Origin: a virus
Lineage: Duplodnaviria > Heunggongvirae > Uroviricota > Caudoviricetes
Strand: one strand, 5' to 3'
DNA length: 11,731 nucleotides
IMG/VR virus record: IMGVR_UViG_2690316156_000010
Shown piece by piece: positions 2,707 through 11,731 of this stretch. The notes under the pieces are model-generated. The model searched no databases. It was not told the origin of the DNA and worked only from the letters and a program-made list of their open reading frames with translations. The number at the start of each line of letters is the position of its first letter. The stretch's first letter is position 1. Made by a program: the position numbers and the translations under genes.

Positions 2707-3042
2707 TTATCGGGCCAGCGGCTGAACGGATACGCCAGAACCCGCAAAGGCGGCGCATTTTTTCGCATCGGTGTCGACGCTCTCAGGCCAGTTAACGGCG
2801 GCGATATTGAATATCCCCGTCTTATAGCACTGTGCTGATTTCTGCGTCGACGTGTCAACGGGGTACGAGGTCAGATAAACAGCCTTGCCAGATTCCTGAC
2901 CATCCCACGGCTTAAACTCGCCATTGTCCGCCAGCATCAGCGGGGTAAATTCCTGAATAACGCCAGCATCAGCGGCAAAATGTACCAGCGTCGTTGATAC
3001 CTGCTGACTGCCTGCAAATAACTCAATGTATGGAGTGTTCAT
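2707..3042 (-). CDS. Head decoration protein, lambda gpD-like (111 aa)
   Basis: Motifs TPLMLAD, KPWDG, WPE, KK.AAFAG align with lambda gpD as recalled; size matches (lambda gpD is 110 aa). I place the start at ATG 3042-3040 with SD GGTGGA; the track's start at 3051 is a GTG inside that SD. Confidence 0.75.
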   Translation of the reverse strand: MNTPYIELFAGSQQVSTTLVHFAADAGVIQEFTPLMLADNGEFKPWDGQESGKAVYLTSYPVDTSTQKSAQCYKTGIFNIAAVNWPESVDTDAKKCAAFAGSGVSVQPLAR

Positions 3043-3053
3043 AGAATCCACCG

Positions 3054-4109
3054 TTAACCAATTTTGACGGTAACAAATTTGCGAATATCTGCCGGAACAG
3101 GCTGCGGTGCGCTGTGTGTCTGCACGTACTCAATCGCCGGATCGCCGTCTTCAATCCAGTTTTTCGGGTAAAACATGTTTTGCGTTGCGCCCGTTCTTAC
3201 CGCTTCCTGTTCCATAATCGCACCATAGGCCACCAGCCCTTTATTGTTGGTGTTGCCCAGGACCAGCAAATCAGGCTCAAGGAAATATTTTTCTGTGCCG
3301 TCGCTGTCAGTGTATTTGCCGGAATAGACGATAAGGGCCAGATCACCAAGATAGCCTTTAAAGCTCACCACTTCTCCCAGGTTTTTACATGCCAGCTCTG
3401 CGGCGGATTCTGAACCACGGGAGAGATCGTACAGTTCACGGAATTTTTTAAAGCTGCGTAACATGCGCCATACATCAACGCCCATAATCATGACGTTTGC
3501 GGGGCAACCTGCCTGATCTGCGTATAGCTCAATGTCATAGATTGGGTCGTGTATGTCTTTGTCCTGCTCTGACCATTTTTTACCGTCGGCCTGCTCTATG
3601 ATGTTTTTTTCCGGTATCTTCCAGTCGATTTCATAGCGCTCTATGCCTTCGCCCTCAATGATGTTTTTTCCGGTCGTTACCGCATTTACCGCCAGCCATT
3701 CCACGCGCGCTTTAATGGCGTTTATCTGGCGGCGCATGTTGCCAGTAATCAGGCGCATACGGCGGTAGGTAGGGTCGTTAAGCTGTGCTGGATCTTCTCC
3801 AGCCATGCGCATTATTGTTTTTAATGGATCGATTTCGTGTTTTGGCTTCATGTAGCCAGGGCGAATAATGCTTGTTTCGTACCCTTTATCGCGCTGAACC
3901 TGGCTACCCACCATAGGCGAACAAAACGCCGACATAGTGACTTCTTCAATATCCAGGTTATCTAACATGATGTCCTGTGTGTTGAATGTCGCCACGTTCG
4001 GGAAAAACAGCGCGGTAAACAGCGGACTGAATTTAAATTCCGCAATATCCTCGCGATTCAGGTACGCAAAAAGCTGGTTAGTGTTAAGTGATATTGCTTT
4101 TACTGTCAT
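3054..4109 (-). CDS. Major capsid protein, lambda gpE family (351 aa)
   Basis: Shared blocks with lambda gpE from memory: FKFSPLFTALFFP vs FKFDPLFLRLFFR; PGYMKPKHEIDP vs PGYVKPKHEVNP; EDPAQLNDPTYRRMRLI vs DEDPQNLADPAYRRRRII; YPKNWIEDGDPAIEYVQTHSAP vs YPKNWVTTGDPAREFTMIQSAP. ATG at 4109-4107 with SD GGGGGTGA; length close to lambda gpE (341 aa). Confidence 0.9.
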   Translation of the reverse strand: MTVKAISLNTNQLFAYLNREDIAEFKFSPLFTALFFPNVATFNTQDIMLDNLDIEEVTMSAFCSPMVGSQVQRDKGYETSIIRPGYMKPKHEIDPLKTIMRMAGEDPAQLNDPTYRRMRLITGNMRRQINAIKARVEWLAVNAVTTGKNIIEGEGIERYEIDWKIPEKNIIEQADGKKWSEQDKDIHDPIYDIELYADQAGCPANVMIMGVDVWRMLRSFKKFRELYDLSRGSESAAELACKNLGEVVSFKGYLGDLALIVYSGKYTDSDGTEKYFLEPDLLVLGNTNNKGLVAYGAIMEQEAVRTGATQNMFYPKNWIEDGDPAIEYVQTHSAPQPVPADIRKFVTVKIG

Positions 4110-4315
4110 TATTCACCCCCGTGAACCTGATTCATACCCAGCGCCGCGCGTAAATAGGCGCGTACCTGCCAGCCTGTTGACGGCTCAACCATCGCCAGCG
4201 GATCAAGTCCTGCCGCAATGCCTGCTTTTACGTTCTGCTGGTGGCGTTCCTTGAGCGCCTTCACGATGTCGGGGCTTATGTACACCGAAACACCGCCTTT
4301 TTTCTCTTCAGCCAT
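4109..4315 (-). CDS. Hypothetical protein, 68 aa, first gene of the capsid operon
   Basis: ATG at 4315-4313 with SD AGAGGAA about 9 nt upstream; its TAA overlaps the capsid ATG (TAATG), indicating translational coupling. No recognisable family. Confidence 0.5.
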   Translation of the reverse strand: MAEEKKGGVSVYISPDIVKALKERHQQNVKAGIAAGLDPLAMVEPSTGWQVRAYLRAALGMNQVHGGE

Positions 4316-4350
4316 AGTAAGAAATTCCTCTTTGACTTAAAAAATCATAA

Positions 4351-4399
4351 CTGGATGTTCATCCAGATCTGATTATAATCATGATTGCATTTTATGCAA
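4351..4399 (-). promoter_or_regulatory. Sigma70-like promoter of the capsid operon with palindromic operator candidates
   Basis: On the minus strand TTGCAT (plus 4394-4399), 16-nt spacer, TATAAT (plus 4372-4377). The -35 lies inside the palindrome TTGCATTTTATGCAA (4385-4399); the predicted start region overlaps the palindrome CTGGATGTTCATCCAG (4351-4366). Confidence 0.5.
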
Positions 4400-4480
4400 T
4401 GATGTTGAGTTGTGTTGCAAATTATGAAATGATGATCCCGATCATGTGTGTCAGTGCGCCAAAAAAAACCTCATATGCAA

Positions 4481-4521
4481 AAGCCCGATAAGATGCCTCC
4501 TGTACTTATCGGGCTTTTTTT
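4481..4521. terminator. Long hairpin flanked by A and T runs (bidirectional terminator candidate)
   Basis: AAGCCCGATAAG (4481-4492), 12-nt loop, CTTATCGGGCTT (4505-4516); T7 downstream and A8 upstream on the plus strand. Confidence 0.5.
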
Positions 4522-4526
4522 GGGTA

Positions 4527-4550
4527 CAAAAAAGCCGGATTACTCCGGCT
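4527..4550 (-). terminator. Rho-independent terminator of the replication/accessory operon
   Basis: AGCCGGA (4533-4539), loop TTAC, TCCGGCT (4544-4550); A-run on plus gives a U6 tail on the minus transcript, 6 nt after the stop at 4556. Confidence 0.6.
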
Positions 4551-4555
4551 GTTGA

Positions 4556-4828
4556 TTAGCTGCCTGGGTAATTACGCCATATTTCATCGCTTACACCATC
4601 TATACCCATTTCAGCATAAGTGCGATCGACTGCCTTTCTCAGGTCTCCGAAGTTATCCGGCGGCTCCGGTGGCCTCTGTGCCTTCCTGGAACATTCCAGC
4701 CGTCGCATCGTAACCTGATGCCGTTCCTTGTCTGTCTCCACCAGCTGCATGACTTCACCCCATCGTGCCGCCGCCCTCCGGTAAAAGCCTTTTGCCTCGA
4801 GTTCCTCCGCTATGCGGTCATGTACCAT
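4556..4828 (-). CDS. Small regulator, possibly PerC/Pch family (90 aa; track shows a longer 130-aa form from 4948 that overlaps ssb)
   Basis: ATG at 4828-4826 sits 11 nt after the ssb stop with SD GAGGGGGTGAGG. AEELEAKGFYRRAAARWGEVMQL resembles the PerC/Pch signature as I remember it (…LE..G.WRRAA.RW…); the family call is tentative. Confidence 0.45.
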   Translation of the reverse strand: MVHDRIAEELEAKGFYRRAAARWGEVMQLVETDKERHQVTMRRLECSRKAQRPPEPPDNFGDLRKAVDRTYAEMGIDGVSDEIWRNYPGS

Positions 4829-4838
4829 CCTCACCCCC

Positions 4839-5249
4839 TCAGAACGGAATATCATCACCGTAAGGGTCATCGCCTCCCGCTGGTGGCTGATTACCCTGTG
4901 TGCCTGTGGTTTTGCGTCTGTTCCCGCCAGGACGTGCCGCACGGGCACTGATTACGCTGTCTGCAATAACCTGATAACCCTGCCGCGTTTCCCCGTTCTG
5001 TCCGGTCCACTGGCTGACCTGCATCGTGCCGGATACGCTGGCAACGTCGCCTTTTTGATGTTTAGCCAGGAAGTCGGCCTGCTTACCAAATGCCATCACC
5101 GATAGCCATAACGTAGCCTGCCCATCCTGCGCCTGACTACATGGCAACGATACCGCCATACGTGCCAGCGTCATTGGTGTGCCCTTGCTGGTCTGTTTTA
5201 CCTGCGGGTCGTCCACCAGCCGCCCGTAAGCCGCTATCTGTGCTGTCAT
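4839..5249 (-). CDS. ssb: Single-stranded DNA-binding protein, short phage/plasmid-type (136 aa)
   Basis: OB-fold-like N-terminal region, Gly/Pro/Gln-rich linker, and the characteristic acidic C-terminal tail …DDPYGDDIPF. ATG at 5249-5247 overlaps the upstream stop (ATGA). Confidence 0.85.
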   Translation of the reverse strand: MTAQIAAYGRLVDDPQVKQTSKGTPMTLARMAVSLPCSQAQDGQATLWLSVMAFGKQADFLAKHQKGDVASVSGTMQVSQWTGQNGETRQGYQVIADSVISARAARPGGNRRKTTGTQGNQPPAGGDDPYGDDIPF

Positions 5250-5810: not shown

Positions 5811-7559
5811 TTATAAAAACGCGTCACAATCATCAGTTGTAATTGCGTTGGTCTGCGTTACTCCCTTAACTCTCCGCGTAATATATTCATGTCCGTAAAC
5901 TTTTGCCGCTGGCTTCATGGCCTTGCTGAACTCAGCCACGTTTAGCGGTTTGCTCCTGCCTGCGTATGCCATAAACGCCAGATAGACGCGGTAAAGGCTG
6001 TTTCTGGTCGTGTACTTCACGGAATCGCCACCGCCACCCATCATCAGGCCGCGCGCTTCCTCCAGAAAATTCAGGAACTGGCAAAACTCAATAACCGGAT
6101 CCGTCTGTTGCTTTATCGCCAGTGCTTCATCACCGTCGCGCTGTTCCAGTAATAAAGCCCGTGCCTTTTCAGGGTCGGCAAAATTAGCCAGCAAGCGACG
6201 GATAATTACGGGGATTTCAGCCGCGACCTTCTCCGGCAAATCCTTGTCTTTTTCGTCCTCCCTTACAATGTTGTCGAACCGGAAAATCACCCGACGGCGT
6301 GACACACCTCCGGCCCGCTCGGTGAATATCATCGGGTTATTGTTGGTAGCCAGCACCACCGCCCTGATTACCGCCGTGAAACGCTTTTCATATTTCGGGT
6401 TAATTTCCACGGGGTCGCCGCCTGTGATTTTCTTGATGCCCGTTCCTTCGCCTGTATATTTCGGCTGGTCAGCCAGGACGATAAGACGACTCCCGACAAC
6501 CTGCGCACGTCCACCAGCATCATCAAGCGATGTCATTTCAGCGCTTACCGTGTTCTGTTTCCCTGCCAGAAGGCTGGCTATGTGTGTGAATGTACTTTTA
6601 CCGCTACCGCCCTCTCCGGTGGCCTCAATAAACATCTGCCAGTCGTACCGGTTCGCCATAATCATGTACAGCGCGGCACATATACGCATCATCTTGCGCG
6701 AGTCTTTTCCGGCTGCGTGCTCAAGCCATTTATGAAAGTTTGGCGCGTTATCGCGGATGTTCTCCCCTGGTGCTGGTGGCGTGTACTCAATGCCGTTGTT
6801 CGTGGTGATCCAGTTCTCCGGCGTGTGCGGGGAAAATTCCCCCGTTTTCAGGTCAAGCGCACCATTGGCGAACGGCAGCAAATCGCCGGACGGCTCGCCC
6901 ATTGGTTCGGCAATAACTTTTAACGCTTCCACGGCGTTATTGATTACGCGCTTGCTGAAAGTGGCCCTGTGCTCTGAATAGATCGCCACCATTTCGCGGC
7001 TAAGTTCCATTGTGCTGACCGGACACCATACCCCGCCGCGCCATACGTGAACGATTTCACTTTCCGGATGCACACAAACGCCATCAAATCGACCAGCAAG
7101 CATCTGTGCGCGCTCACTGTCTGCCATTTGTGCCAGTTGCGTATTTTTCTGCTCCGGCATGGTAAGCCCTGCGGCAATATTTTCACGCTCAGCATTCAGA
7201 TAGCGCCGCCAGTTTTCACACTTCTGGACGTGCATTCCTTCGGGGTAAAAATTTGCGTCCTGAATATCTGCCGCCGCCAGCTTCTGACCAATCTTTTTGG
7301 TCTCCACCAAATCCAGTTCTCCGGCCTGGTACAGCCTTACGCGTTTTTTTCCATCAGGAACAATTTGCAGTGCATCAAGTTCGGCAAGCTGATTTGGCCC
7401 AAGCCACACAGGAGGCACATTATCGCCGGATGCGGGGCCGTCCTGCTCCTGCCACTGTTTTGCATGTGCCCACGCATCACTACCCGCGAAAATAATCACC
7501 TCTGTGTCTTTGTGTTTTATTCCGCGTGGCTGTTTTTTTACGTTCGGTGCCAGTTTCAT
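5811..7559 (-). CDS. Replication initiator: primase / D5-type helicase fusion (P4 alpha-like, 582 aa)
   Basis: Walker A P-loop GEGGSGKST mid-protein with a downstream LIVLAD hydrophobic-acidic stretch (Walker B-like); size and position (after small early ORFs, before ori) match satellite pri/rep genes. ATG at 7559-7557 overlaps the upstream stop. Confidence 0.85.
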   Translation of the reverse strand: MKLAPNVKKQPRGIKHKDTEVIIFAGSDAWAHAKQWQEQDGPASGDNVPPVWLGPNQLAELDALQIVPDGKKRVRLYQAGELDLVETKKIGQKLAAADIQDANFYPEGMHVQKCENWRRYLNAERENIAAGLTMPEQKNTQLAQMADSERAQMLAGRFDGVCVHPESEIVHVWRGGVWCPVSTMELSREMVAIYSEHRATFSKRVINNAVEALKVIAEPMGEPSGDLLPFANGALDLKTGEFSPHTPENWITTNNGIEYTPPAPGENIRDNAPNFHKWLEHAAGKDSRKMMRICAALYMIMANRYDWQMFIEATGEGGSGKSTFTHIASLLAGKQNTVSAEMTSLDDAGGRAQVVGSRLIVLADQPKYTGEGTGIKKITGGDPVEINPKYEKRFTAVIRAVVLATNNNPMIFTERAGGVSRRRVIFRFDNIVREDEKDKDLPEKVAAEIPVIIRRLLANFADPEKARALLLEQRDGDEALAIKQQTDPVIEFCQFLNFLEEARGLMMGGGGDSVKYTTRNSLYRVYLAFMAYAGRSKPLNVAEFSKAMKPAAKVYGHEYITRRVKGVTQTNAITTDDCDAFL

Positions 7560-7860: not shown

Positions 7861-8088
7861 TTATTCTCCGGTATGGGGCGAGTTATTATTCTCGTGAATT
7901 GCCATCACTGTATTTAATTCATTAATAACAGGCGTTAATAGCGTACGCACGGCAGAAAACATCATTGAATCAGATTCATCGCCACTTTCCGGCACATCAA
8001 TTAACTTAAGTAGTAATGCGTCCATTTCCTTTGCGAGGATTAATGCGTTTTCAGAATGAACAAGAACATCAAAGGGTATTTTATGCAT
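7861..8088 (-). CDS. Hypothetical protein, ~75 aa (track shows 7861-8190 from a start without a ribosome-binding site)
   Basis: ATG at 8088-8086 preceded by GGGGGGAG; this start overlaps the stop of the upstream ORF by 8 nt (ATGCATAA). Confidence 0.4.
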   Translation of the reverse strand: MHKIPFDVLVHSENALILAKEMDALLLKLIDVPESGDESDSMMFSAVRTLLTPVINELNTVMAIHENNNSPHTGE

Positions 8089-8545
8089 GACTCCCCCCCT
8101 GGCGAATACGGGCGACAAAAATAAGATGTGCGTGCGGCAGCTGTGCACGTGCTTCGCGCTCAGTGGCAGCGGTAACGGTGAATATTGCAATACTGTCTGT
8201 CAGGCACTGCATAAAGCGCCAGACAAAATAAGGGCGTGCGGATACAGCCATGTGAAAGGCTCCCAGATGAATTTTAAGGAGTCTCGCTACTACGCTGTCA
8301 AACATGGTGGCGAGACGTAACAGGGTTGACAGACTGGTCATCTGGAAACCAGCGAGCACAAAGGCTCCCCCGTTACGCCCCGCCATAATGCGGGTATGGG
8401 TAGGTTTACGGACACAAAAAAACCGCTTATCGGATGTGGGCGGCTGTCCGCCAGATGTATTCAGGCTGTCAAACCCGGTCGCCATGTGGGCGACGGGGGA
8501 AGCATACAGCCCCGTGATAATTTTTTGCAAGCGGTTTTTACGCAT
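8081..8545 (-). CDS. Repeat-unit ORF B (154 aa from ATG 8545) ending in an Icd-like small domain; an internal SD+ATG at 8251 could give an independent 56-aa product
   Basis: C-terminal 56 aa MAVSARPYFVWRF…TEREARAQLPHAHLIFVARIRQGGSHA is paralogous to two other copies; GGGAG lies 8 nt before the internal ATG at 8251. The ATG at 8545 overlaps the stop of ORF A. Icd-like assignment is from memory of similarly annotated small proteins in P4/PICI elements. Confidence 0.45.
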   Translation of the reverse strand: MRKNRLQKIITGLYASPVAHMATGFDSLNTSGGQPPTSDKRFFCVRKPTHTRIMAGRNGGAFVLAGFQMTSLSTLLRLATMFDSVVARLLKIHLGAFHMAVSARPYFVWRFMQCLTDSIAIFTVTAATEREARAQLPHAHLIFVARIRQGGSHA

Positions 8546-9095
8546 GATGTGACCCCTGACGAATACGAGCGGCAAATACAGCAACACAACCTGACGGGCA
8601 ACGGCTACGCGCTTCGCGTTCTGTCCAGGCGGTTACGTGGATGATTTGAGATTCTGACGCGCCAAAGATGATAAAGCGCCAGATAAATGCGGTTTGAGAA
8701 TGTACAAGGGTAGGGATAGTAGCCATGTTGGCAGCCTCCTCAGTGTGGTTAAGATAACCGCCACGCAAAAGGCTAATTTCGCTGGTGGCGGACTGTACAG
8801 GGTTAGCCTTACCGGACACTGAAGAAACCGGCGCGGATTGCTCCGCCCCCGTACAGCCCACCATTGATAAGGTGTGACTATGCGGCACAAAAAAACACGC
8901 GGGGCGCGTGCTGTGCGCTTCAGTTGTTTTCAGGAGGCTAATCCCGACACCCGTTTTATGAGGTGCGCGGGAATCATAGCCATTTTTGCTGGTGGCGATC
9001 AAGCGGTTTTTTTCTCCGGCACTCAGTGCCAGAAAACGCCACACAAAGGCCGTTTGTGTGTGTACAAGGTGTGGTATATGATTTACGGCAACCAT
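8538..9095 (-). CDS. Repeat-unit ORF A (185 aa from ATG 9095) carrying two Icd-like repeats; an internal SD+ATG at 8726 could give an independent 62-aa product
   Basis: N-terminal copy MVAVNHIPHLVHTQTAFVWRF (SD GGAG before 9095) and C-terminal copy MATIPTLVHSQTAFIWRF…TEREARSRC…FAARIRQGSHHA (SD GAGGAGG before 8726). Between the copies, differences are mostly synonymous in this frame (CAT/CAC, ACC/ACG, GCA/GCC, CGC/CGT) and non-synonymous in the plus frame, which supports minus-strand coding. Confidence 0.45.
   Translation of the reverse strand: MVAVNHIPHLVHTQTAFVWRFLALSAGEKNRLIATSKNGYDSRAPHKTGVGISLLKTTEAHSTRPACFFVPHSHTLSMVGCTGAEQSAPVSSVSGKANPVQSATSEISLLRGGYLNHTEEAANMATIPTLVHSQTAFIWRFIIFGASESQIIHVTAWTEREARSRCPSGCVAVFAARIRQGSHHA
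8889..8910 (-). terminator. Intrinsic-terminator-like hairpin plus U7 inside ORF A (possible attenuator)
   Basis: On the minus transcript CACGCG-CCC-CGCGUG followed by UUUUUUU (plus 8896-8910 with A7 at 8889-8895), about 190 nt after the ORF A start; the U-run encodes the conserved CFFV residues. Confidence 0.35.
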
Positions 9096-9104
9096 AACGG
9101 CTCC

Positions 9105-9224
9105 TAGTTTACGTTGTTGGTTAGAAGCCCCGTTACTGCTCCTACAGTGCGGGGCTTTGCTTTTTGTGTTGATTGTGTGTAATGTGTCATTACACATAAA
9201 TACATTACATGAGGTGTAATTAAC
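9105..9224. promoter_or_regulatory. Divergent control region between the RHH gene (plus) and the early/replication operon (minus), with operator-like palindromes
   Basis: Inverted repeat TGTGTAATG-N3-CATTACACA at 9176-9196, further half-sites CATTACA (9203-9209) and TGTAAT (9215-9220), and a 7-bp-stem hairpin at 9126-9156. I could not place convincing -35/-10 boxes. Confidence 0.45.
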
Positions 9225-9404
9225 GTGTCAACACACAAAAACGAAAGGCGTGGTAATCCTCCGTTCCAGTTCCGTTTAGATCCTGACTTACGGGAAAAGA
9301 TGGAAAAGGCACAACAACAGGACGGCGATGATTCTCTTGCTGCCTGGATAAAGCGAATAATCCGCAAAGAATTACAGCAACGCGGCATAGAACCCAAAGG
9401 ATAA
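9225..9404 (+). CDS. Arc/Mnt-type ribbon-helix-helix DNA-binding protein (59 aa, GTG start; not in the ORF track)
   Basis: GTG at 9225 with SD GAGGTG 8 nt upstream and an in-frame stop just before it; translation VSTHKNERRGNPPFQFRLDPDLREKMEKAQQQDGDDSLAAWIKRIIRKELQQRGIEPKG shows the beta-strand (FQFRL) then two helices typical of Arc/CopG-type repressors. The plus strand is purine-rich here, consistent with sense orientation. Confidence 0.6.
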   Translation: MSTHKNERRGNPPFQFRLDPDLREKMEKAQQQDGDDSLAAWIKRIIRKELQQRGIEPKG

Positions 9405-9786: not shown

Positions 9787-9993
9787 TTAAGCAGCCGTTC
9801 CGCGTGCTTCCTCTTCGCGTTCTTTCTGCCAGGACAACACATCATCCTCATACCATCCGCGACGGCGTAAACCAACGCGAAAACCCTGCGGAAATTCTCC
9901 GGCGTTGATCATGCTTTGCAGCGTGCTGTCTGCCTTGATGTGGATAATTTTTTTTACTTCCTGGCGAAAGATAATTTTTCTGATTGCTTCCAT
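9787..9993 (-). CDS. alpA: AlpA-family (MerR-like HTH) transcriptional regulator, 68 aa
   Basis: …IRKIIFRQEV…STLQSMINAGEFPQGFRVGLRRRGWYEDDVLSWQ matches the AlpA pattern (…FP.p.klg.R.v.W.e.ev..W…) and the position just downstream of int is typical for PICI-type islands. ATG at 9993-9991. Confidence 0.7.
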   Translation of the reverse strand: MEAIRKIIFRQEVKKIIHIKADSTLQSMINAGEFPQGFRVGLRRRGWYEDDVLSWQKEREEEARGTAA

Positions 9994-10123
9994 CGTGATT
10001 TACCTTGTGAATCCGGTGTATTCCGGTGACAAATACGGTAAATCATCAGATATGGGTAAAAACAGTTCCCACCGTTTTTAAACGGTATACACCGTTTTTT
10101 ATATTGATGATTTGAAATGGAAT

Positions 10124-10150
10124 TATAAAAAAAGCGGCATTTCTGCCGCT
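10124..10150 (-). terminator. Rho-independent terminator after the int-proximal small ORF
   Basis: AGCGGCA (10133-10139), loop TTTC, TGCCGCT (10144-10150); A-run on plus gives a U7 tail on the minus transcript. Confidence 0.55.
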
Positions 10151-10160
10151 TCCAGGATTG

Positions 10161-10412
10161 TTACCGCCATTTTTTGGGCCTGCCTCCGATCTTCATAGAT
10201 GCCGGACGTACGACCTTATCAATACTTACCGCCAGATTTCTGGAAGCGCCACGGGATACCAGAAAATCTACTACCTGTTTTTTTGATGGGGCCGTCGTTC
10301 TGTCCTCCGGATCGTAGGTTGACCAAAATTCATGCTGAACCATCAGGGCCAGTTGCAGCCCGTCGCAATTGCATCTGATATTTTTTTGCATCTTAACGGT
10401 TTCATGTTTCAC
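10161..10412 (-). CDS. Hypothetical protein, 83 aa, between int and alpA (GTG start at 10412; ATG alternative at 10391)
   Basis: ORF followed immediately by a clean terminator; first codon is GTG on checking the sequence. No family recognised. Confidence 0.4.
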   Translation of the reverse strand: MKHETVKMQKNIRCNCDGLQLALMVQHEFWSTYDPEDRTTAPSKKQVVDFLVSRGASRNLAVSIDKVVRPASMKIGGRPKKWR

Positions 10413-10489
10413 GGCCTTGTCGTTAAATTTGATGCAATTATACGACGGTTTTACATGGTTTTCGTAGTTTTTACTGGTTTTCTGTACAG

Positions 10490-11731
10490 CTACACGGCTC
10501 GGATACCCCTTTTACCACTGGCGAGGGTTACGCCCGTCGCCGCAGCCTCGACAAATTCGCCCCACCAGCGCATCAGCACGATGCGTTTTTCTATGTAGTT
10601 GCTCCGGTTGTATGCCCGTCTAACTTCGTTGGTGTCGACGTGGGCAAGTGCCGCCTCTATTACGTCCGGCTCGAATCCTTCCTCGTTCGCTGCTGTGCTG
10701 AATATGGCGCGTAATCCATGAGACACCAGCACGCCAGCGAATCCCATACGCCGCAATGCTGCGTTAGCTGTCTGGCTGTTCATCGGCTGCTGTGGGTCTT
10801 TCAGACTTGGGAAAACGTAATTGCGGTGGTGGCTGATTGGTTTCATGGCCTCCAGCACCGCCATAGCCTGACCGGAAAGCGGGATAACGTGATCCCTGCG
10901 CATCTTCATGCGTCCGGCAGGTATCGTCCATTGCTTCGCGTCCAGGTTGATTTCATCCCACCGCGTTGATGACGCTTCGGCGGGACGGGTTACGGTCAGT
11001 AACTGCCATTCAATCAGTAATCTGGTCTGCCGTTCTGTTGCCGATACTGATAAAGCCTGCATAAGCTCGGGCAGCTGTTCGGGGCGGATTGTTGGCATAT
11101 GTTTTTTTACAGGTGAGGGAAACGCCTTACGCACATTCATAGCCGGATTGGCATCAATCAGCCCACTGTTGGCGGCGTAATCCATTACCTCATTAACGCG
11201 CTGTAAAACCCGCTTGAGTGTTTCCAGGTTGCCGCGCTCCTTGATGGGGGTAAGCACTTCAACGAACCTTCGGGCGGTGAGGGTATCTATTGGCGTGTTG
11301 CCGATGAACGGGAATACATATTTATCCAGCGAACGCCAGATGTCTTTAATCGTGTTGGGGGCCAGATTCTGGCTGATTTTCACCTGGTACCATGCCGCCG
11401 CCACATTTTCGAACGTGTTCCCTTGTCTTCGGGCCTCTGTCTCTCTTTTTTGCCTCTCGTGGTCCTGCGGGTCAGTTCCGGCACTGATTAACGTCCTGTA
11501 CTCGCTACGGCGTTTTCTGGCATCAGCCAGGGAAACATCTTCAAGCGATCCAAAACTCAGCAATATTCTTTTTTTGTCCGATGGTCGGTAGTAGGAAAAT
11601 CTCCAGAGTTTTGATCCAGACGGTTTGACCAGGAGAAAAAGCCCTCCGCCGTCCTGCAGGGTGTACTCCTTTTGCGCTGGTCTGGCTGCTTTGATCTGCA
11701 CTGTGGTTAATGGGTGTGTTTTTCTCGCCAT
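10490..11731 (-). CDS. int: Tyrosine recombinase / integrase, P4-type (413 aa)
   Basis: N-terminal arm-binding-like region (…LFLLVKPSGSKLWRFSYY…) and C-terminal catalytic motifs (HGLRAIF = H-x-x-R; RRAYNRSNY with the Tyr). The ATG is the last three bases of the window, so the attachment site and tRNA are outside it. Confidence 0.9.
   Translation of the reverse strand: MARKTHPLTTVQIKAARPAQKEYTLQDGGGLFLLVKPSGSKLWRFSYYRPSDKKRILLSFGSLEDVSLADARKRRSEYRTLISAGTDPQDHERQKRETEARRQGNTFENVAAAWYQVKISQNLAPNTIKDIWRSLDKYVFPFIGNTPIDTLTARRFVEVLTPIKERGNLETLKRVLQRVNEVMDYAANSGLIDANPAMNVRKAFPSPVKKHMPTIRPEQLPELMQALSVSATERQTRLLIEWQLLTVTRPAEASSTRWDEINLDAKQWTIPAGRMKMRRDHVIPLSGQAMAVLEAMKPISHHRNYVFPSLKDPQQPMNSQTANAALRRMGFAGVLVSHGLRAIFSTAANEEGFEPDVIEAALAHVDTNEVRRAYNRSNYIEKRIVLMRWWGEFVEAAATGVTLASGKRGIRAV

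Follow-up and report, generated by a model that had tools for sequence, protein, structure and literature searches.

The control of late genes in the phage-inducible chromosomal islands (PICIs) of Gram-negative bacteria is poorly described. In these islands, AlpA acts as a helper-dependent activator (PMC6092414, PMC6739421), and the capsid and decoration homologues of the model Gram-negative PICI, EcCICFT073, are c1499 and c1500, respectively (PMC6092414). Here we consider the 11,731-nucleotide stretch of DNA in IMG/VR record IMGVR_UViG_2690316156_000010 (the window), whose gene organisation and gene order are those of EcCICFT073 (PMC6092414, PMC6739421), and in particular a palindrome-rich region at positions 4351–4445, upstream of its capsid genes. 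All coordinates refer to the plus strand of the window. Judged by gene content, gene direction and tRNA insertion site, the window is an EcCICFT073-type PICI of Escherichia coli, and the same architecture is present in strain CFT073. The region at 4351–4445 is probably the promoter/operator block of the capsid (late) unit of this island family, and it combines a LexA-like box at the predicted start site with a pair of upstream dyads, termed O1 and O2. In EcCICFT073, the same block, consisting of O2, O1, TATAAT and a LexA-like box of 20.3 bits, is located upstream of the small open reading frame (ORF), c1499 and c1500.

A functional parallel exists in operon I of the pathogenicity islands of Staphylococcus aureus (SaPIs), which is controlled by LexA according to Ubeda et al. 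2007 (Mol Microbiol 65:41) as cited in PMC6092414. That operon is likewise a satellite morphogenesis and packaging operon with its own promoter, whereas LexA control of the capsid unit in the window is predicted only. If both units are held by the SOS repressor, their late genes would switch on with the same signal that induces helper prophages. The likeness is one of function only, as there is no sequence homology between the two systems and their hosts belong to different phyla. SaPI operon I carries terS and cpm, whereas the unit in the window carries genes for lambda E-like and D-like head proteins and no homologues of terS, cpm or pti. Moreover, the paired dyads over the −35 region have no described SaPI counterpart, and the LexA box of Gram-positive bacteria is of a different type from the CTG-N10-CAG box of E. 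coli.

Colicin promoters are double-locked SOS promoters held by LexA and a second repressor. They have a LexA box at the start site and an independent second set of operators, as is predicted for the capsid promoter, in which the second sites lie upstream, over the −35 region and at −57. A double lock of this kind would delay or gate expression beyond the cleavage of LexA.

Architecture of the predicted capsid promoter

The main genes of the window are all encoded on the minus strand, and the promoter therefore reads TTGCAT-16 nt-TATAAT. Its −10 hexamer (4372–4377, minus strand) matches the sigma-70 consensus at six of six positions. The −35 hexamer (4399–4394), in which TTG is kept, matches at only three of six, so the near-consensus promoter recognized in the initial annotation is near consensus in its −10 element and not in its −35 element. 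The position of the promoter, behind two terminators and before the capsid operon, supports a sigma-70 promoter and agrees with the earlier view of this region as the capsid operon promoter. The region represents the control region of a separate transcription unit for the capsid and decoration proteins.

The first of these terminators is an intrinsic-terminator-like hairpin followed by a T run (4533–4550, minus strand; AGCCGGAGTAATCCGGCT then TTTTTG), which ends the PerC/SSB/primase unit; the PerC ORF itself ends at 4556. The second is a bidirectional terminator-like hairpin (4479–4518) composed of AAAAGCCCGATAAG, 12 nucleotides and CTTATCGGGCTTTT, with 14-nucleotide arms that are 100% complementary, and it is kept in relatives. 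On the other side of the promoter, a conserved T run is followed by the Shine-Dalgarno region AAGAGGA (4326–4332, minus strand) and by an ATG at 4315. The string TTTTT..GTC..AGAGGA is invariant.

All three palindromes that were originally described between 4351 and 4445 are present. The sequence CTGGATGTTCATCCAG (4351–4366) is a perfect palindrome with arms of 7 and a spacer of 2, TTGCATTTTATGCAA (4385–4399) can be extended to ATTGCATTTTATGCAAT (4384–4400), and the third palindrome, ATGATCCCGATCAT, is located at 4432–4445 (ATGATCGGGATCAT on the gene strand, 4445–4432). In addition, a fourth perfect palindrome, TGATTATAATCA (4370–4381), spans the −10 hexamer. When only perfect palindromes with arms of at least 6 and spacers of at most 4 within 95 bp are counted, dinucleotide-preserving shuffles reproduced four palindromes per 95 bp only 2 times out of 5000, and at least three 38 times out of 5000. 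No other 95-bp stretch of the 11.7-kb window has four such palindromes.

Conservation counts are based on 87 loci (61 unique segments and 52 unique cores), with CFT073 examined separately. The relatives comprise O157:H7, a Nissle 1917 derivative, and Salmonella, Pluralibacter and metagenomic contigs found via the 68-amino-acid protein encoded by the first gene of the capsid unit, together with 80 IMG/VR contigs that matched a degenerate search pattern spanning O1 and the −10 hexamer. Because the pattern covers O1 and −10, the invariance of these elements in the pattern-derived loci is by construction, although the protein-anchored lineages show their conservation independently. Group B has TAAAAT as its −10 sequence, and every other lineage has TATAAT. 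Among representative genomes, the search with the 68-amino-acid protein found no loci, and the degenerate DNA pattern gave only chance matches in unrelated taxa.

The third palindrome, which had been put forward as an operator, is not conserved as a palindrome. It is perfect in only 16 of the 87 loci, with ATGATCGGGATAAT and GTGATCGGGATAAT as the commonest forms, and its place is taken by unrelated sequence in the promoters of Salmonella, Pluralibacter, group B and the L059 type. Most likely, it is incidental and not functional as a palindrome. GATC (Dam) sites occur twice within it (4434–4443; GATCGGGATC), and another GATC at 4367–4370 overlaps the left flank of the LexA-like box (AGATCT). 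Neither arrangement is kept in relatives.

A LexA-like box at the predicted start site

Sequence comparisons make it fairly probable that the palindrome CTGGATGAACATCCAG is a LexA box and that the capsid unit is under LexA control. The candidate box (4349–4368; ATCTGGATGAACATCCAGTT on the gene strand, core 4351–4366) begins 5 nucleotides past TATAAT and extends from about −1 to +15 of the predicted promoter, a usual place for a LexA operator. On a symmetrised matrix derived from 18 E. coli SOS boxes (PMC3009722 Table 4), the site scores 16.2 bits. This value is within the range of the validated boxes used for training, which runs from 13.2 (polB) to 28.4 bits and includes dinB at 16.4 and ftsK at 17.8 bits. 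Scores of at least 16.2 bits have a probability of 1.4e-6 per position, corresponding to 0.016 expected sites per window, and in 300 simulations with a first-order Markov model no site attained 16 bits. Likewise, 230 kb of unrelated DNA contained two sites of at least 13.2 bits and none of at least 16. A matrix built without ruvA, cho and dinG still gives the site 15.6 bits.

The arms of the palindrome, CTGGAT and ATCCAG, are identical to those of the ruvA box CTGGATATCTATCCAG (PMC3009722 Table 4), and the cho box shares the CTGG start. All three sites thus have an uncommon CTGG...CCAG form. The boxes of ruvA (20.3 bits) and cho (20.7 bits) score similarly to most PICI versions (18.5–22.2 bits), with the window's own box at 16.2 bits. 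The central four bases differ between the window box and those of ruvA and cho; binding is established for the latter two, whereas the window site is predicted. The CTG-N10-CAG spacing had been described initially as LexA-like with differing internal bases, and both the score and the ruvA arms make this resemblance better supported than was claimed.

The box is kept in 80 of the 87 loci at scores of 16.2–22.2 bits. In 79 of these it is found at the same offset, and in the remaining one, from Pluralibacter, a box of 17.8 bits with a different centre is located 12 bp further downstream. Twelve distinct versions exist. None of them departs from CTG or CAG, and positions with a higher information content in the LexA matrix have fewer alleles (Spearman −0.59, p = 0.006, for 12 versions from loci of which many are close kin). 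In four loci, representing two box versions, ATACAG replaces ATCCAG, such that the hairpin is broken while the LexA score is raised to 21.7 bits. When 49 kb of CFT073 including the icd prophage were scanned, the sole site of at least 16 bits was that of the EcCICFT073 capsid promoter (AACTGGATGAACATCCAGTT, 20.3 bits). The box is absent from the six group-B promoters, and one more locus has a 1-nucleotide insertion in the box.

A second LexA-like box is present at 10472–10491 (AGCTGTACAGAAAACCAGTA on the gene strand) and scores 17.0 bits, with the next best site in the window at 7.3 bits. It immediately follows the int stop codon, and a 76-amino-acid ORF (10161–10391) and alpA lie downstream of it. 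Because it lies about 31 nucleotides upstream of a TATAAT at 10430–10425, it may not occlude that promoter. Most related loci that span the int-alpA region have analogous boxes there, and islands with other integrase types also have int-alpA boxes, such as TACTGGTTTTTTATACACTA (19.3 bits) and TACTGTATTTTAATCCAGTA (25.0 bits). In total, CTG-N10-CAG occurs eight times in the window versus 1.9 times expected from shuffles. Only two of these occurrences score as LexA-like, with the others under 7.3 bits, and a general richness in CTG and CAG words may account for the excess.

Paired dyads over and upstream of the −35 region

The dyads O1 and O2 are conserved 17-bp elements of the type ATTGCA-N5-TGCAAT. 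O1 (4384–4400, minus strand; ATTGCATAAAATGCAAT on the gene strand, centre near −27) covers the −35 hexamer and most of the 16-bp spacer. O2 (4414–4430, minus strand; ATTTCATAATTTGCAAC on the gene strand, centre near −57), which is absent from the initial annotation, is a direct repeat of O1 at a spacing of 30 bp and is 85% identical to it over 20 nucleotides. O2 lies outside the retrieval pattern. Its ATTTCAT and TG.AA do not vary between the lineages of E. coli, Salmonella, Pluralibacter and group B, even though the flanks have diverged. The TCAA between the dyads is also kept, as is the TTGC...TGCAAT of O1 (TTGC-N7-GCAAT) in the protein-anchored lineages. Given that the right half of O1 is located in the spacer, promoter function alone does not account for its conservation.

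Dyad pairs are also found outside this island family. In another PICI (L141), ATTGCAATACACGCAAT, 13 nucleotides and ATTGCAATTTATGCAAT form a pair at 8962–9008, in an intergenic region before unrelated late genes. The T1-like virulent phage phiA2-1 (OR861626.1; L182 37540–37634, with the same stretch at L011 3004–3097) has four dyads arranged as two pairs, each 30 bp apart. These are intergenic and lie just upstream of an unannotated 74-amino-acid ORF (PHROG 4344, function unknown), for which no known family was found. A comparison of the promoter with phage records gave only a weak match, to phiA2-1, and no protein common to this phage and the islands explains the dyads. The presence of dyad pairs in both L141 and phiA2-1 raises the possibility that their binder is a host factor new to phage and satellite biology.

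A scan of viral contigs for paired dyads yielded 52 matches, nearly all of which are coding 30-nucleotide repeats that read Ile-Ala-x-x-Ala-Ile. Only those of L141 and L159 were confirmed as intergenic, and the match in L177, to which L175 and L179 are nearly identical, is coding. The coding repeats, which make up most of the matches at loci L130–L181, look like tail-fibre-type repeats, and they constitute a trap for motif searches that use the dyad. The L141 island encodes an integrase of 36% identity, homologues of Icd/ash-like and DUF4222 proteins, a large protein of the primase type and a weak AlpA-like match, and it has no gene for the 68-amino-acid protein.

Predicted regulation of the capsid unit

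The organisation of this region suggests a sigma-70-type promoter that would direct leftward transcription of the minus strand and be insulated from the replication genes by the two terminators. In undamaged cells, LexA bound to the box over the predicted start site would block initiation. Upon induction of the SOS response, which also triggers lambdoid helper prophages, RecA-stimulated cleavage of LexA would free the capsid promoter. A second lock would most likely be provided by a dimeric regulator that binds O1 and O2, probably cooperatively. With the proximal site overlapping the −35 hexamer and the spacer, repression is the probable mode of this regulator. From sequence features we infer where transcription starts, that LexA binds, in which direction regulation acts and that a second regulator exists. 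Of the two signals suggested in the initial annotation, helper infection or a DNA-damage-type cue, the latter appears to be better supported than was held at the time.

More tentatively, EcCICFT073-family PICIs might have two direct connections to the SOS regulon of the host, the capsid promoter and the int-proximal box, with the capsid promoter further gated by a paired-dyad regulator. We regard this complete arrangement as possible but doubtful. No description of this capsid promoter, or of a LexA box in Gram-negative PICIs, was found in the literature searched, the coverage of which is incomplete. An SOS-box promoter on a Gram-negative satellite late operon, with an extra operator pair, would be new, whereas a LexA-controlled satellite operon is already known from SaPI. 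If the prediction is correct, these islands would have a direct, helper-independent input from DNA damage, including that caused by SOS-triggering antibiotics, and their wiring would be convergent with that of SaPI operon I. Two-point SOS wiring would also require the current picture of helper-dependent, SOS-independent induction to be amended.

Several observations weigh against SOS control of the capsid unit or limit its significance. In EcCICFT073, alpA is reported to need the helper phage rather than SOS for its induction, and no phenotype resulted when c1499 or c1500 was deleted (PMC6092414). These findings imply that SOS control, if real, is not the main induction switch; it would add to the AlpA/helper switch, not replace it. 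With no reported phenotype for c1499 and c1500, its immediate biological weight is also limited. The box in the window is the weakest of the 12 versions at 16.2 bits, and the fourth position of its arms is G/C in place of the T/A of the consensus. The group-B promoters lack the box, indicating that it is not essential to the promoter. The −35 hexamer is poor, and since it matches the consensus at only three of six positions, the promoter falls below the threshold of the sigma-70 consensus scan, which made no call at this site. Most of the 87 loci are close relatives whose conservation is weak evidence, and the Salmonella and Pluralibacter lineages supply most of the independent support. Finally, no binder for O1 and O2 was identified among the 68-amino-acid protein, the ribbon-helix-helix (RHH) protein of the island, PerC, AlpA, CytR and helper CI.

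Alternative explanations

It is conceivable, but in our view unlikely, that CTGGAT-N4-ATCCAG is the operator of some other dimeric protein from the island, a helper phage or the host, and that its likeness to a LexA box is coincidental. Nearly all versions deviate from the LexA consensus at the fourth base of each arm, the published induction of this island family is helper-dependent and not SOS-dependent, and the promoter carries other protein-type dyads in the form of O1 and O2. However, coincidental matches of 16–22 bits are expected only about 0.001–0.02 times per window, and agreement with the LexA consensus extends to the A and T that flank the palindrome. The sole arm substitution among the E. 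coli versions (ATACAG) moves toward this consensus, a second LexA-like box is present elsewhere in the same island, and no candidate rival protein is known. The same substitution bears on the possibility that the palindrome acts in RNA, either as an attenuator or terminator or as a stabilising 5ˊ stem-loop, possibly read through via a helper-phage antiterminator. A terminator scan does list the palindrome, as a 6-bp stem with a 4-nucleotide loop followed by TTATGATTTT, and the Pluralibacter version is directly followed by TTTTTT, with pairing kept through a G-U pair. Yet the ATACAG variants break the stem, no compensatory double changes were seen, and the predicted start site is inside the left arm, such that the full stem would not be transcribed. 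Folding of the 5ˊ leader is no better than that of shuffled sequences (−9.6 kcal/mol, z = −0.63; z = +0.11 without the left arm). In the E. coli versions UUAUGA intervenes between the stem and the U tract, and a 6-bp stem with three GC pairs and a separated U tract does not amount to an intrinsic terminator or attenuator. A role in RNA is thus highly improbable. Least credible of all is that AT-rich promoter DNA gave rise to the palindromes by chance and that they have no regulatory role. The third palindrome behaves as expected by chance, and the region is AT-rich with many ATGAT and ATCAT words, but the observed number of palindromes is rare among shuffles, and O1, O2 and the LexA-like box are kept where flanks have diverged.

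Other explanations concern the protein that would recognize O1 and O2. Candidates include the Arc-like RHH protein, AlpA or PerC of the island, host CytR and helper prophage CI, but it is improbable that any of these is the binder. Upstream of the RHH gene are dyads, ATTACA-N5-TGTAAT, that are one base away from O1 in each half-site. The Pluralibacter island, however, has a different RHH protein and different upstream repeats (GTGCTATTCAC / GTGCTAT type) and yet the same O1/O2, and the Salmonella island keeps both the TGTAAT operators and the same O1/O2 type. In other words, the RHH operators co-vary with the type of repressor and O1/O2 do not. CytR half-sites have been published as TGCAA/TTGCA (PMC3454398), but they have the opposite orientation to those of O1 (TTGCA-N5-TGCAA) and need CRP flanks, and no TGTGA-N6-TCACA is evident here. 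Thus, O1 and O2 do not conform to a CytR operator, which consists of TGCAA-N2-3-TTGCA or octamer repeats between CRP sites. PerC is encoded immediately upstream of the capsid promoter, but the annotation of the Nissle island is without PerC and O1/O2 are kept there. For AlpA, the region upstream of its gene has unrelated ACGGTG/ACCGGA repeats, and for helper CI, no O-like dyad is present in the immunity region of the icd prophage of CFT073. Consequently, the RHH, AlpA and PerC-like proteins named as candidate regulators in the initial annotation do not fit the −35 dyads.

Gene content and additional features of the island

The window matches E. coli chromosomes and is 100% identical to that of strain S1-CAM-02-A, where the element sits between yejO/narP and tRNA-Pro/yejM, with tRNA-Pro adjoining int. 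A 551-bp query across the palindrome region has matches in 713 of 5426 complete E. coli genomes, including O157:H7 strains and a Nissle 1917 derivative. Annotation with Pfam and RefSeq identifies an integrase (10490–11731), an AlpA-type helix-turn-helix regulator (9787–9993), a D5_N/P4-type primase (5811–7559), SSB (4839–5249) and PerC (4556–4948), all on the minus strand. The capsid unit, on the same strand, begins with the 68-amino-acid ORF (4109–4315; PHROG 3255, function unknown) and continues with the lambda E-like major capsid protein (3054–4109), the lambda D-like head decoration protein (2707–3051) and a 137-amino-acid protein (2281–2694) that resembles the C-terminal, scaffold-like part of head proteases.

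The 68-amino-acid protein belongs to a narrow enterobacterial family with no remoter homologues and has no Pfam family. Its AlphaFold2 model, of moderate confidence (predicted local distance difference test score 74.6), has a strand-strand-helix-helix arrangement and gave no Foldseek match with E < 1. The possibility that it is an RHH autoregulator is not supported, as it has neither a family nor a fold assignment and is also absent from the dyad-keeping island L141. Q-type antitermination of the capsid unit was rejected, since a −10-like TATGAT downstream of the LexA-like box is not conserved and no obvious downstream terminator was seen.

Downstream of the scaffold-like gene, the relatives from O157:H7 (L002 3481–4023) and Nissle (L003 3484–4026) have a gene annotated as ‘terminase small subunit’, which is lacking in the window and may be the Rpp-type gene of PMC6739421. 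The EcCICFT073 product at this position (435 nucleotides) is annotated as hypothetical only. In the window, the sequence at 1619–2280 differs from that of O157:H7 and Nissle and holds a 114-amino-acid ORF (1707–2051) with no RefSeq annotation.

The Arc-like RHH protein (59 amino acids; 9225–9404, plus strand; PHROG ‘Arc-like repressor’, E = 2e-6) is encoded by the only plus-strand island gene annotated in RefSeq. This gene is preceded by the dyads TGTAAT-N5-ATTACA (9178–9194) and ATTACA-N5-TGTAAT (9204–9220), the second of which overlaps its Shine-Dalgarno sequence. The Salmonella island retains both the protein and its dyads, and the Pluralibacter island has different ones in their place. The protein is a candidate for an autoregulated island repressor. 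The region upstream of alpA (9994–10160) contains a terminator-like hairpin (10153–10130), the palindrome AAACGGTATACACCGTTT (10080–10097), a further copy of AAAAACGGTG and direct ACCGGA repeats. These repeats are possible sites of AlpA autoregulation and are not related to the dyads of the capsid promoter. Finally, the zone at 8081–9197 contains two overlapping minus-strand ORFs with near-identical ends (...TEREARxxxP...ARIRQGxxHA), which RefSeq annotates as Icd-like and ‘ash family’ proteins, partly as pseudogenes.

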